A DNA stretch of 64,000 bases from an uncultured Nitrososphaerales archaeon (lineage in GTDB: Archaea > Thermoproteota > Nitrososphaeria > Nitrososphaerales > Nitrososphaeraceae): the NCBI GenBank assembly GCA_963713605.1, contig CAVQMO010000010.1:1-64000 (forward strand). The letters are read 5' to 3'. Every line of letters starts with the position of its first letter. The stretch's first letter is position 1. Made by a program: the position numbers. Below, one piece after another: positions 9,001-12,000 of the stretch.

Positions 9001-12000
9001 AATTAGTACTGGGATTCAGTGGATTGTTTATGTTGGAAAATTCTAATCTAATCTTGGTACCTACAGGTACATTAACAGCATTATTTACCGCGTAGGTTAT
9101 TGTTCGTCCAGTCACATCACTTACGAAACCAGGACCTATTCCCTCTGCCTCATTGAATACCGCAGTAGTTGGTACTGTCAGTACCAACTGGGAAGGTCAC
9201 CTGTATGAACTTAATCACACCTGCTTTGCCAGTAACAAAAACGACATCATAGAAAGATTTGGTATTCACTATATTATTTGTCGGTCTTGCAGTAAGAGAA
9301 GAAAGTGCGGCTTGCGTAGTAAAATCCCCCTTTTTTTCATCTTGGCCTATAGTTGAAGGTGCAGAGGGTGTTGTACTAATGGTAGGGAGGGGCGTAGAAG
9401 TAGAAGGCTTTGCTAATACAGGGTTAACCAGCATAACAGTAGGTGACGAAATAACCATAAGAGCAATAATCAGCGTTATACCAAGTTCTAATCCTGAAGA
9501 CATGGATGGACATCTCACGTTCATATATTACAGGTAGTTTTGGCTAGTCTAACTTATCTGCAGTCAGAGACTCTTCTTACCCATATTAGTCATAGATTTT
9601 ATCTCTAACATTCAAAGTATCAATAAATACATACATATTTGATTGTGACTGGCATAAATACTGGGAATGGAAGTAAAATACATTGAACCGTCTTCAATGA
9701 CATCTATTATTTTTGTTATTAGTACGGACAATTCTTCTGTTCTGTTTATGCAGAATGTAATACCTACTTCAACTCTTTGGAGGCTCATAGTTACATAAAG
9801 CCAGTCTGAATGAATCCAGTAAATCATCATGCGACGTTTGTTGCTTGTCCAGCCTCCAGTCATCTATCACGACTGCCGTCCTTAGCGATACTATCAGCTT
9901 TTGAAGCGACGGATGGATCTTGATGAACCGCTTGGACATCAACGTATGAGTCCACTGTAGCATTTCTCTGTGTCTCTTCTGGAAGTTGACAGGTATTATC
10001 TGCCAACTGTTACTGCTTCGCAAAGACCAGATCTGTTCTTCTGTTAGCCTGCCATATAGTCGTGATACTCTCCTATCCTTGTTTTTAGTTCTCTTATGAC
10101 TTCCGGATTTGCACCATCTACGTATATCTTTGTTATAGTGATGCCTCTGCTTTAGCTGCATGATATGATTGATGATCTCATTCATCAACGGTTTCTCGAA
10201 GCTCTCTGCATAGAATACTTCCACCTTATTGTTTCTGTACTGGGTAATGACAATGGCAAACTTCGAAGTATCTCCCCATGCCACATCAATGCCCATGCTT
10301 CTTCCTACCATGGTACTTGTGGACCAGTCCATCATTTCCTGGCCTTCATGCCTGAGTGCATATTGCCTGCTTCTATGTCTAGAGTATGGAAGACATTGCC
10401 AACCTTACCCAGAGTACTTTAGATTGTATTCTCTTTCAAAAGAAGGTGATTTCTGTGCCTAGTGCTATCTCTTCCTTCGTGTAGATTTTGTCAAGCCATA
10501 TGTATAGTCAAGGAATAGCCGTTTGTAGAAGCAGGTATCTTCCGGTTCTCTTTCTATCTTTTCAAAGAGACCATCTGGAGCATTAGGAGTCGAGACCATA
10601 ACAATCCATGGATTAGACTTTGCGATGTACCTTTCAGATACATCTCTGGCATCCTGCTGCTGACCAGGTGGAAAGAAGTCTGCCTCATCCAGATAGATGA
10701 ATGATACATTCGTTAGACCTCTCATACTATCGAGGTGATGGATGGATAGGCCTCTATATGGACGCCATTTAATTCGAGAACTGTTTCCTTCGAATCAAAA
10801 ACAGAGAGAATTTCTCTATTTTTGAATAAGCCCTTCATTCTATCAATCAGTGTAATTGCTAACTCTATCCTGGGTCCTGTAACAATGCACATCTGTGAAT
10901 TCCGAGGAATATTTTTCGAAAAACAAAGCCAGGCCATATATCTAAGCATAAACTCGGTAATGCCTAGTCCAGTGGCTTTCTTAATCCATACATGTTTGTG
11001 ATTCTGCAGTGTGTCGAATACTAATTGTTCATAGTCGAATAGTGGATAGGATTGACCATTCTTTTGAGGTAGGCCTATGGCATGATTGAAGCAGCAAAGA
11101 TTTAGGTTACTACCAAAAGTCTCGTTTTGAAGCGAAACTTTTGCGTTAGGTGTGGATGAATTTTGAAATGCTATTTTTTTCGAATAAATTTTCGAAGTTT
11201 CAACTTCTAAATTTGAATTAGGCCACTGACAGTAAAACAGTAGTCCCTGCAGTAATTCGAATTGATTTGGTGCAGTAGTAGTAAATCCGAATTGCTGTTC
11301 GTACCTGTCGAGTATTTTATCGAGACTATATAGTGTCATGTGTGACTAACTCATTGTTTTGAGGCACAAAACCCCTGCCTCGATATCTGTCAATAAAATC
11401 AACTGCCTTCTGAATTACGTTAGCATTGCTAAGAAGTTCTATCTTCATTTGATATGCCTGCATGCCAATTTGTAATGCCTGCAACTTCTCGCGTTCTGTA
11501 ATTGTTATCACACCATTGCTTGAGTTGGCAATATCCCAGGTCTTTGTTAGTATGGCATCCAGACCAACCAAACATTTTTGATATTCAAGGGGAAGGATTT
11601 CATCTGATGGTACTTGCCAATATTATTACGAGCCTGCTCCCGCAAAAATTGCAAGTCCCTGTTCACAGTAGCCATTCCAACTTTCAATACTGACGCTATT
11701 TGATGCTGGTTACGTCCCTCACTTGATAATTCTAATACTTTGTTCCTGCGCCATCGTATGCGTTCCGCTTCGCTACTCAATATTTCCACTTAATATAGAT
11801 GATAACCATTATTTCTCAATGTCTGTTGTTGGTTTTGGTATTCCCTGGCTGCAAGACTAACACTTTTTTGATTTGCGTTTTTCTTCATTTACTTAATTTC
11901 CTGCTCGATTGATTGGACAATATACAAGTTCCTGGCTACATTCTCAGGCGTTATAAGACAACGACAGCTCCTACCATCTGAGGATGAAGGGTACAGTGAT

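Follow-up and report, generated by a model that had tools for sequence, protein, structure and literature searches.

The window analysed here, the first 64,000 nt of contig CAVQMO010000010.1 from an uncultured Nitrososphaerales archaeon, carries at 9769-11789 on its reverse strand a TerS-like HTH gene followed by a homolog of TerL, the terminase's large subunit. We read this pair, with about even confidence, as the decayed copy of a group of satellite-like integrative elements of the Nitrososphaeraceae that bring their own TerS-like gene together with a complete TerL. Islands of this kind probably spread inside capsids that they borrow from related tailed viruses.

Both genes of the window pair are broken (Table 1). 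The HTH gene belongs to a cluster whose members sit directly upstream of TerL at 24 loci, and the TerL pieces match the phrog_2 profile 'terminase large subunit' weakly (E 1.9e-4 and 1.7e-3). When compared with its closest intact homolog, L073_07, the window TerL displays about eight 1-bp indels from 10740 to 10056, none of them in a homopolymer. The initial annotation, which had listed 9769-11789(-) among the fullest copies, was right about the presence of a TerS-like HTH/TerL pair, but with both genes broken and so many indels this TerL is not a full copy in the functional sense. Contigs from four soil/rhizosphere runs contributed only short pieces from relatives over 9000-12500. At 10352, 10366-10368 and 10740, some of these pieces show the reverse of the window's indel state; none of the four runs gave a near-identical contig across the TerL frameshift sites. 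A check of assembly quality showed RpoB and two class-I aaRS genes to be open and one aaRS gene on the window's contig (C10, 595714-597583) to be split. The window copy is best read as a dead remnant amid a region full of decayed mobile DNA. Upstream of TerS-TerL, the same strand carries an integrase as well as a P-loop gene of replication type, and homologs of the P-loop protein, 685-770 aa in length, are found near TerL in L041, L052, L062 and L045; in L039, a member of this family is fused to the TerL N-terminus. No tRNA genes were found in the window.

Table 1. Features of the window that bear on the TerS-TerL element, in order of position.
Position	Strand	Feature	Details
4703..5650	-	Further c3 paralog, 316 aa	Beyond the solo TerL fragment
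5856..5927	-	Solo copy of the last ~25 TerL codons	3.85 kb past the TerL stop, same orientation
6055..7047	-	Intact c3 paralog, 331 aa	TM helix, then two beta-sandwich domains; fold mean pLDDT 75.5
8614..9524	-	'c3'-family gene for a secreted Ig-like surface protein, in three pieces	Directly downstream of TerL
9769..11339	-	TerL homolog, pseudogene	Three ORF pieces: 11339-10722, 10725-10465, 10335-9769
11326..11789	-	TerS-like HTH gene	Two ORF pieces: 11789-11547, 11571-11326; weak HTH Pfam matches
12248..12607	-	120-aa ORF with a membrane anchor, flanked by the replication-type gene and TerS	Family search: none found
12835..14813	-	Candidate replication helicase of the island, a P-loop protein from a ~700-aa family	Split, 161 aa + 457 aa
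15096..16238	-	381-aa ORF upstream of the P-loop gene, same strand	Family/profile searches: no matches
18297..19527	-	Tyrosine integrase, pieces of 100 aa + 272 aa	Phage_integrase E 8.1e-9; integrase cluster c2
25949..26299	-	Separate TerS-like HTH ORF, 117 aa, no adjoining TerL	Cluster c1; HTH_11 and HTH_38 matches
36562..36840	-	Internal TerL fragment, about residues 174-337	Similarity search with TerL sequences
54383..55365	+	A second remnant of TerS/TerL, decayed, with the 3' half of TerL	Similarity search with TerL sequences

The TerL family itself is large. Public data hold 3909 relatives at E<=1e-3, mostly of 480-530 aa, and a TerL match is present in 93 of 151 Nitrososphaeraceae genomes (a count that takes in the unpublished G035 and G077), several of which have at least 10 scored matches, with many stop-free open frames. 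All five intact homologs tested match phrog_2 (E 3.4e-23 to 5.1e-20). Two of the five, P0083 and P0117, score above the Pfam Terminase_6C cut-off of 22.6 (27.0 and 25.7 bits, respectively); P0004 and P0017 fall below it, and P0026 is not listed. Among 33 intact sequences the invariant columns are K90, G93 and G95, Walker B (D186-E187), the coupling-motif position (S218-T219) and the acidic residues of an RNase H-like nuclease, D315, D375 and D484. Walker A is deviant in these copies, reading K90-x2-G93-x-G95 without the canonical GK[ST], and it is so in the proviral TerLs as well; in lambda-type terminases, Walker A can work with a lysine placed before the glycines. By profile similarity and nuclease features, the family is a large terminase with a predicted ATPase and a predicted RNase H-like nuclease. 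Across ten pairs of portal-less TerLs, dN/dS ranged from 0.040 to 0.381 and was at most 0.175 in nine; one pair of provirus TerLs gave 0.207. The intact portal-less copies are under purifying selection.

As for the partner gene, 19 of the 33 intact non-provirus copies have a TerS-like gene no more than 1 kb from TerL and 25 have one within 5 kb, and in nine of the 33 the TerS-TerL gap measures 0.9-5.8 kb and is filled by genes of metabolic or regulatory type. The placement of cargo genes between TerS and TerL is unusual for a packaging operon. An intact HTH relative (L060) matches phrog_2538, 'terminase small subunit', weakly at E 2.9e-4. The N-terminus of the upstream gene in the viral contig L077 matches the element gene of G078 at E 3e-7; a second comparison between viral and element upstream genes was not significant.

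In the window's own genome (G000), the initial annotation had counted copies at about 30 places on eight contigs. The loci are indeed many, but more than that: tblastn with nine TerL pieces from this genome returned 57 loci, and with 34 intact TerLs, 65 TerL-like loci on nine contigs. Of the 65, eight are 1.2 kb long or more, 13 measure 0.5-1.2 kb and 44 stay below 500 bp. No intact TerL was found in G000, the best open frame being 375 aa. The copy pairs compared are 81-86% identical in DNA, which bears out the earlier observation that none is closer than 86%. These G000 copies, the one at 9769-11789 included, are best read as dead remnants clustered in element graveyards.

The pair had also been described as a bare two-gene module, a description that its relatives do not sustain. 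The TerS-TerL pair is accompanied by tyrosine integrases, PrimPol, SF3/D5 helicases and cargo genes, and a layout of integrase, PrimPol, helicase, TerS, TerL, a Zn-ribbon protein and the protein c8 recurs across genera. Within 10 kb of TerL, a tyrosine integrase is found in 18 of the 33 intact non-provirus copies, a replication-type gene (primase or helicase) in 11, and neither in 13, some of which lie at contig ends. In G000, 25 of the 65 TerL loci have an integrase within 10 kb; 500 draws of random sites gave 11.2 on average and never more than 22. Many other TerL neighbors are ordinary metabolic or regulatory genes, and in L050 a GmrSD/HEPN gene adjoins TerL. The c3 gene directly downstream of the window TerL is read as cargo. 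Its family numbers 84 homologs, with tandem arrays and fusions to peptidases, and in the PDB the c3 fold finds its matches among integrin, adhesin, BslA and cohesin domains. These genes, once termed pilin-like, were considered as capsid proteins and rejected, the predicted fold being that of an Ig-like surface protein. For c8, a search of the PDB with the predicted fold (pLDDT 65.6) gave nothing at E<=0.001, and the protein atlas had no usable match.

One copy was caught as an insertion. In G115, a segment of ~5.1 kb (L043, ~6900-11980) lies between two host genes and contains a cupin gene, an integrase, TerL, a 133-aa TerS-like ORF and a 120-aa ORF. The same host genes are ~190-450 bp apart in G034, G090 and G056 and similarly close in several more congeners; the L043 copy is a clean insertion polymorphism of 5.1 kb, for which relatives show empty sites. 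No direct or inverted repeats of at least 8 nt were found at its junctions, and there was neither an att core nor a target duplication. A direct-repeat search of six element loci gave no att candidates, and neither an excised or circular form nor packaged DNA was seen. The elements do not target tRNA genes, which adjoin only one of 36 loci. With L042 and L061, the search for empty sites yielded none, the regions not being syntenic among relatives.

Virion genes are scarce around these copies. HMMs for two types of portal, for capsid and for tail-tube proteins had no match among all six-frame ORFs of G000, and no portal of either type lies within ~9-10 kb of TerL in any of the 33 intact non-provirus copies. 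At the element loci, the same four kinds of HMM matched nothing except one c73-like protein in L025 (from the unpublished G035). These absences hold within the sensitivity of sequence profiles, which capsid genes that are too divergent could escape. Among the 151 genomes, in contrast with the 93 that have TerL, a c49-type portal occurs in two and a Mu-like portal in five, seven in total. Pfam Phage_capsid matched none of the 151 genomes and Phage_portal_3 gave one weak match; both scans are uninformative, because they also miss proviruses found otherwise. The claim that the pair never stands beside portal, capsid or tail genes therefore holds for G000 and for the 33 intact non-provirus copies, but not for the family as a whole. 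Portal and capsid genes are paired with this TerL family in 60 of 72 IMG/VR contigs (L076-L147) and in three proviruses, the genomes with proviruses being G079, G101, G113 and G139. The IMG/VR relatives were found with an alignment as query; a scan with the single protein P0017 returned no relative.

Three of these viral contigs, L077, L085 and L110, nest beside genomic copies from G078 and G012 on the portal-less side of the TerL tree, which is split from the other side at SH-aLRT 100. Besides TerS and TerL, they encode a Zn-ribbon protein and one of 517 aa, which the protein atlas assigns to Phage_portal_3 with a score of 0.97. The provirus of G139 carries a portal of the same c49 type, an assignment based on language-model features and gene order. 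An hhalign comparison of c49 with the Mu-like portal family was collinear over 276 columns and not significant (E 0.04, probability 1.3%), and PDB sequence searches with c49 and c8, as well as hhalign of c8 against c72, found nothing. By their sequences, viruses of the L077/L085/L110 type, clade-mates of the elements, are candidate helpers.

Could the portal-less copies instead be ordinary head-tailed proviruses that have lost their structural and lysis genes, with TerS-TerL still recognizable? The TerL family is viral, complete proviruses reside in the same archaeal family, and G000 has broken copies only, many of them short fragments. The passages of Krupovic et al. 2019 (PMC6563490) that deal with the integrated element NitKor-E1 read that element likewise. 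Relics should drift, however, whereas the portal-less copies are intact, numerous per genome and constrained at dN/dS values of 0.04-0.18. The integrase/PrimPol/helicase/TerS/TerL/Zn-ribbon/c8 layout is the same across genera, the 5.1-kb insertion holds only integrase, TerL, TerS and two small genes, and a ratio of 93 genomes with TerL to 7 with portals would need selective retention of the terminase. On this evidence, we consider provirus decay unlikely. The conserved TerS-TerL core, the purifying selection, the excess of TerL over portals and the 5.1-kb polymorphism likewise favor the original proposal of a non-viral selfish element with a terminase engine, though not of a bare one.

Under the preferred reading of satellite-like islands, the elements would integrate by way of their own tyrosine integrase. 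Upon infection by a related head-tailed virus, the element TerS would recognize element DNA, and the element TerL would dock on the helper portal and pump that DNA into helper capsids. Of the two options raised initially, satellite or transposase, the satellite is the better supported mechanism and has candidate helpers by sequence, although no att core was found at L043.

A further feature of the islands lies at the 3' end of TerL. Approximately 51 of the 65 G000 loci reach the TerL C-terminus and approximately 8 the N-terminus (our own count from the locus table), and similarity among all copies ends at the TerL stop codon. In the window, and also in L042, L063, L064 and L074, solo TerL 3' ends lie 0.7-3.9 kb downstream of a full TerL, oriented as it is and separated from it by cargo. 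The aligned core of the window fragment is ~75 nt long at roughly 80% identity (by eye), and its flanks are unrelated. The repetition of the TerL 3' end as solo fragments flanking cargo, new here, appears attachment-site-like from these alignments. The last 30-60 TerL codons may serve as a recombination site of the attachment type, at which further cassettes would accrete and leave the solo 3' fragments behind. Streptococcal ICESt-type accretion offers a parallel, in that partial direct repeats of the 3' end of a target gene flank cassettes downstream of the intact gene; the repeated 3' end here, in contrast, belongs to the element's own terminase gene and not to a host gene.

The gathering of cargo between TerS and TerL and just past TerL also brings to mind a service to the host or island, either defense through packaging interference or an in-situ packaging that transduces cargo in the manner of lateral transduction or a gene transfer agent. 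Purifying selection on TerL, the 13 of 33 copies with neither an integrase nor a replication gene nearby, and the GmrSD/HEPN gene of L050 would fit such a role. Many divergent copies per genome and their rapid decay, however, look selfish rather than domesticated, and no structural cluster of a gene transfer agent was found, portal and capsid matches in G000 being zero. We regard a role of this kind as improbable.

The last alternative, an IS-like two-gene transposon with the TerL nuclease as transposase, draws on high copy numbers, on DNA similarity within genomes that is often confined to a 1.3-3 kb TerS-TerL stretch and on its stopping exactly at the TerL stop codon, but is very improbable given that no genome examined has a full-length copy pair above ~92% identity, that the L043 insertion lacks inverted or direct terminal repeats and target duplications and includes an integrase and other genes, that the upstream boundary varies and cargo lies inside the pair, that TerL loci have an integrase nearby more often than random sites do, and that a same-clade TerL serves ordinary virus contexts. 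We accordingly rejected TerL as a transposase as the main reading, and with it the earlier suggestion of a terminase turned transposase.

Comparison with known systems helps to place the satellite-like islands. The bacterial PICIs/SaPIs and PICMIs carry an integrase, sometimes a primase-helicase, and a TerS gene for packaging specificity, and have no capsid. Satellites of the PICI type bring TerS, or else a redirecting factor, and work with the helper's TerL. The 5.1-kb integrase-TerL-TerS element resembles a minimalist island (PICMI); the present elements, as putative satellites, differ from PICIs in adding a complete TerL, in being archaeal and in not targeting tRNA genes. The cf-PICIs encode their own terminase, capsid and portal and steal only tails; they share an own terminase with the present elements, in which, however, no head genes are detectable. 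The head-tailed viruses and proviruses of Nitrososphaeria, e.g. Nvie-Pro1, share the TerL family with the elements, at 30-52% identity, together with the deviant Walker A and the order TerS-TerL; part of them also have a Zn-ribbon gene after TerL, as in the elements. Their portal, capsid and tail-tube genes lie within a few genes of TerL, whereas the genomic element copies are without these. Marine satellites, grouped here with the PICI-like systems, are dealt with in PMC9618062.

The nearest described case is NitKor-E1 of Ca. Nitrosopumilus koreensis AR1, a cryptic integrated element that has TerS directly upstream of TerL and also a tyrosine integrase, while other virus hallmarks are absent (Krupovic et al. 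2019, PMC6563490). The account of NitKor-E1 in that paper states that a terminase had not previously been seen in non-viral elements and judges the element a likely relic. As described there, NitKor-E1 shares with the present elements TerS-TerL, a tyrosine integrase, the lack of another virus hallmark and an ammonia-oxidizing archaeal host. It was described as a single element, in contrast to a family of 3909 proteins with many intact, selected copies per genome, and the likeness is one of gene content as described.

If capsid riding proves true, archaeal head-tailed viruses would have in these elements their first known satellites, and ones of an unusual type that brings the whole packaging enzyme and not a specificity factor alone. 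One may go further and envisage satellites with a complete terminase module that doubles as a packaging platform in the chromosome: packaging from the TerS site would carry downstream cargo, such as genes for surface proteins and metabolism, into helper capsids, and the TerL 3' end would act as attachment site for accreting cassettes. This would in effect be a built-in lateral-transduction device that moulds the genomes of soil ammonia oxidizers, a combination to which we attach little probability. The repeated TerL 3' ends supply a concrete candidate recombination site. Soil ammonia-oxidizing archaea drive nitrification, and to our knowledge almost nothing is known of gene movement in them. 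The elements are common in the genomes sampled, often in many copies, and carry metabolic, regulatory and cell-surface cargo; they could therefore serve these archaea as a main channel for gene flow and for virus interference.

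The terminase pair belongs to a large family. A search with a 375-aa piece from the window's genome (G000) returned 3909 proteins at E<=1e-3, most of 480-530 aa and nearly all unnamed, the named ones all being from Nitrososphaeraceae. Among 151 sampled Nitrososphaeraceae genomes, including two unpublished ones (G035 and G077), 93 have a match at E<=1e-10, and several have at least 10 scored matches with many stop-free frames of 485-530 aa. Intact members of the large-terminase homologue (TerL) match the phrog_2 profile at E 3e-23 to 5e-20, and two of five score above the cut-off for Terminase_6C. 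Across 33 aligned intact TerLs, the Walker B pair (D186-E187), the coupling motif (S218-T219) and the nuclease acidic residues (D315, D375, D484) are invariant. At the Walker A position K90, G93 and G95 are invariant and the canonical GK[S/T] is absent; because proviral members also lack it, this absence is a lineage trait and no sign of decay. Over 10 pairs of TerLs from portal-less contexts dN/dS spans 0.040-0.381 (at most 0.175 in nine; 0.207 for a provirus pair), which indicates that selection maintains TerL in these contexts. A nuclease-domain insert of ~35 residues (alignment columns ~517-552) is present in all 30 aligned portal-less TerLs and absent from proviral L055, L069 and L070. 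One locus, L065 (G046:C315), carries at 2252-7414 two intact TerS-TerL pairs in tandem on the same strand, 3.7 kb apart and 80% identical in protein, and at L039:8051-10534 (G078) an 828-aa open frame joins the N-terminal ATPase part of TerL (residues ~15-345) to a segment of the ~700-aa P-loop family, and is possibly chimeric or produced by recombination.

The initial annotation was right that 9769-11789 holds a TerS-TerL copy, but overstated the locus, as this copy is dead: its frames are broken (see table) and its TerL pieces give no more than weak matches to phrog_2 'terminase large subunit'. Against its closest intact relative (L073_07, 489 aa) the window TerL aligns collinearly from residue 48 through to the end, with repeated changes of frame, and a DNA alignment of the two places ~8 single-base indels at 10740-10056, none of them in a homopolymer run. 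Since RpoB and two class-I aminoacyl-tRNA synthetases are open in this genome (one synthetase on the window's contig, C10, is split), most of the breaks look real, assembly error being a possible source. The split synthetase match (C10:595714-597583; two frames, one TAG) reflects either a broken paralogue or local assembly errors in the contig. ORFs of at least 150 aa cover just 0.29-0.69 of each contig, and per 50 kb 0.31-0.81 on C10 and C1 and 0.36-0.76 on C3; such coverage seems low by archaeal-genome standards, and large parts of the genome look degraded or error-prone. The C3 paralogue of the window copy is 85% identical, with indels of its own and an internal gap of ~320 bp (estimated from alignment coordinates); because a ~420-bp stretch is, as judged by eye, almost identical between the two, gene conversion may have occurred. 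Elsewhere in the window, a 594-aa ORF (43480-45261, +) without family matches contains internal DNA repeats (self-matches 44576-45265, 85-88% identity), and a stretch poor in long ORFs holds a ParB-like ORF (42342-42809, +; ParB_N E 3.5e-20) as well as 119 aa (39167-39523, -) that match the 20-kDa NADH-quinone oxidoreductase subunit.

Features of the window copy and of related loci in other genomes
Feature	Location	Strand	Basis
HTH (TerS-like) gene, two overlapping ORF pieces	window 11789-11326	-	ORF calls
Large-terminase homologue, three pieces (205, 86, 188 aa)	window 11339-9769	-	ORF calls
Membrane ORF, 120 aa	window, upstream of pair	-	ORF calls
P-loop gene of ~700-aa family, split 161 + 457 aa	window 14813-12835	-	family homologues
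Two unknown ORFs	window, upstream of pair, before integrase	-	ORF calls
Tyrosine integrase, two pieces	window 19527-18297	-	Phage_integrase E 8.1e-9
Genes between TerS and TerL	L042, L047, L050, L051, L063, L071-L074 (other genomes)
TerL followed by solo TerL 3' end, 2.7 kb between (arginase, RibD_C, methyltransferase-family gene)	L063
Same layout	L042 (3.6 kb), L064, L074 (0.7 kb)
L043 stretch: cupin gene, 133-aa TerS-like ORF, 120-aa ORF	L043 (G115)
L043 stretch: integrase	L043:7792-8883
L043 stretch: TerL	L043:10751-9204
~490-bp repeat	L043:11508-11995; G115 C1:1516-1997, C1:83345-83769, C1:120054-120543, C2:62756-63237

Over the 4.09 Mb and 15 contigs of G000, of which the window is C10:1-64000, tblastn found 57 TerL-like loci when nine local pieces served as queries and 65, on 9 contigs, when 34 intact TerLs of relatives did, so that the earlier figure of about 30 places on 8 contigs was too low. 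Eight of the 65 are at least 1.2 kb long, 13 measure 0.5-1.2 kb and 44 fall below 500 bp. None encodes an intact TerL, the longest open frame being 375 aa (C10:221486-222610). The fragments are bunched, as at C10:537-551 kb, C3:67-85 kb and C1:670-688 kb, and these clusters look like a graveyard of repeated integrations. Integrase matches lie within 10 kb of 25 of the 65 loci, against 11.2 on average and at most 22 for random sites (500 draws), the loci being clustered and hence non-independent.

It had been stated that the pair never adjoins portal, capsid or tail genes, which is false for the family as a whole. Three of 40 fetched loci, from one genus (G079, G101, G113), are true proviruses in which a Mu-like portal (E 8.5e-8), a capsid protein (phrog_267, E 6.7e-8) and a tail-tube protein come after TerL and an Hcp-like gene lies close by; these portal, capsid and tail-tube genes are absent at the remaining fetched loci. 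In six-frame ORFs of G000, HMMs for the two portal types, for capsid protein and tail tube and for several further head-module clusters gave no match, and at the element loci nothing but one match resembling head-module cluster c73, in L025 (from unpublished G035). The Mu-like portal occurs in five of the 151 genomes, all of one genus, and the second portal type (c49) in two, G003 and G139, in the latter 5.4 kb past a TerL; capsid and portal scans with generic Pfam profiles proved too insensitive and were not counted. That the islands are decayed proviruses is a reading with which the broken copies of G000 would accord; set beside it are the intact, apparently selected TerLs of portal-less contexts, and we consider it improbable.

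An alignment-based scan of IMG/VR yielded 72 loci with this TerL at 30-52% identity; 60 of these have the Mu-like portal cluster a few genes past TerL, with a ~620-aa capsid-type protein usually coming next. A TerL tree of 62 sequences (101 minus 39 near-duplicates at >=85% identity; quick IQ-TREE, SH-aLRT support only) splits in two with support 100: one side holds 21 viral and three proviral portal-linked TerLs plus three others, and the other 28 portal-less genomic copies and seven IMG/VR contigs. In six clade-B IMG/VR loci (L077, L085, L088, L109, L110 and L129, the last left out of the tree as a near-duplicate) TerL is followed by the ~517-aa c49 protein, which a protein atlas grouped with Phage_portal_3 portals (score 0.97; 24 of 30 matches in that set), and then by a further protein that weakly matches 'minor head protein'. 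L085 and L110 nest beside genomic copies of G012 and G078 with support 99-100 and share with them a Zn-ribbon gene after TerL. Because these c49-bearing contigs nest there, real viruses are present within the portal-less side, and the tree interleaves island TerLs with those of genuine tailed viruses.

The contexts of portal-less copies were drawn from the 40 loci, each of at most 20 kb and together from 25 other genomes, by longest-ORF calling and clustering; the counts cover 33 intact non-provirus TerLs in 32 loci, three provirus loci and five without an intact TerL of 420-620 aa being left out. Recurrent neighbours are the HTH gene directly upstream, tyrosine integrases, a PrimPol with a PriX domain, SF3-like and D5-like helicases, a ParB-methylase and the ~700-aa P-loop family. 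A TerS-like gene lies within 1 kb of 19 of the 33 copies and within 5 kb of 25, an integrase within 10 kb of 18 and a replication-type gene within 10 kb of 11; 13 have neither of the last two within 10 kb, some of them sitting at contig ends. Pfam annotation of 121 neighbours also returned many ordinary metabolic and regulatory genes. In nine copies 0.9-5.8 kb of ordinary-looking genes separates TerS from TerL, among them a patatin, a histidine kinase with its response regulator, an ABC transporter with glutamate dehydrogenase, and a DDE transposase, which suggests an insertion hot spot within the packaging pair. The pair is no bare two-gene module, as first proposed: it forms the conserved core of capsid-less islands that bear integrases and carry cargo. 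A packaging or defence role serving the host or the island seems slightly less probable still than proviral decay.

Several secreted-protein genes of cluster c3, described as pilin-like in the initial annotation, lie downstream of the window pair, and c3 arrays directly follow TerL remnants at three places in G000 (window 2834-9524, C3:72-73 kb and the C1 end, C1:1154295-1164222). For the intact paralogue at 6055-7047 there are 84 homologues, without exception from Nitrososphaeraceae-type sources; many stand in large tandem arrays (one 29.7-kb contig has at least 11), and some are fused to peptidase domains. The predicted fold of the paralogue (mean pLDDT 75.5; 41-sequence alignment) comprises an N-terminal membrane helix, a disordered linker and two beta-sandwich domains matching integrin leg domains, bacterial adhesins, BslA and cohesins. 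The paralogue is a protein of the cell surface and no capsid protein, and the c3 genes are treated as cargo.

A new observation concerns repeated solo 3' ends of TerL. By an approximate table count in which numbering follows the matching query, ~51 of the 65 G000 loci reach the C-terminus and ~8 the N-terminus, and at least 16 loci hold solo fragments of the last 30-60 codons. Aligned as DNA, seven long and 12 solo copies all lose similarity at the TerL stop codon, and the 5' edges of the solo copies spread over ~100 bp. The window has a solo fragment at 5927-5856, oriented like its TerL, 3.85 kb downstream of the TerL stop and separated from it by c3 genes; the fragment's aligned core of ~75 nt is ~80% identical (read from the alignment) and its flanks are unrelated. 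Cassettes would thus accrete site-specifically at an attachment-type site within the TerL 3' end.

Within genomes, DNA similarity between copies is mostly limited to the 1.3-3 kb TerS-TerL stretch (82-92%), some mosaics running longer, and no near-identical copies were found in these comparisons. A decisive case on mobility is L043 in G115, where a ~5.1-kb stretch (L043 ~6900-11980) separates two host genes that lie ~190-450 bp apart in G034, G090 and G056 and, from the hit table, at similar spacing in several further congeners; its junctions show no repeat of at least 8 nt. The ~120-aa ORF that ends this element is encoded by a ~490-bp repeat with five copies in G115 (91-93% identity), one of the others sitting 1.4 kb from a TerL fragment. 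That TerL itself acts as a transposase, for which the multiplied copies might speak, is very doubtful beside islands with integrases of their own.

Krupovic et al. (2019, PMC6563490) report only five TerL matches in 21 thaumarchaeal genomes, regard NitKor-E1, which carries TerS, TerL and an integrase but nothing else viral, as an enigmatic element and a probable relic, and state that no terminase had been found in non-viral elements. According to a 2025 preprint (10.1101/2025.02.15.638363), the archaeal satellites known before its plasmid-derived spindle-virus satellites were pSSVi and pSSVx only; a satellite of an Asgard tailed virus has been proposed, with no terminase among the genes named for it (2026 preprint, 10.64898/2026.08.12.739948), and TerS homologues are present in marine bacterial satellites (PMC9618062). 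No published description of this Nitrososphaeraceae TerS-TerL family was found in the literature searched. We give an even chance to the reading that the TerS-TerL islands are helper-dependent satellites, and the viruses on the portal-less side of the tree are natural candidates for their helpers, or for donors of the packaging module.
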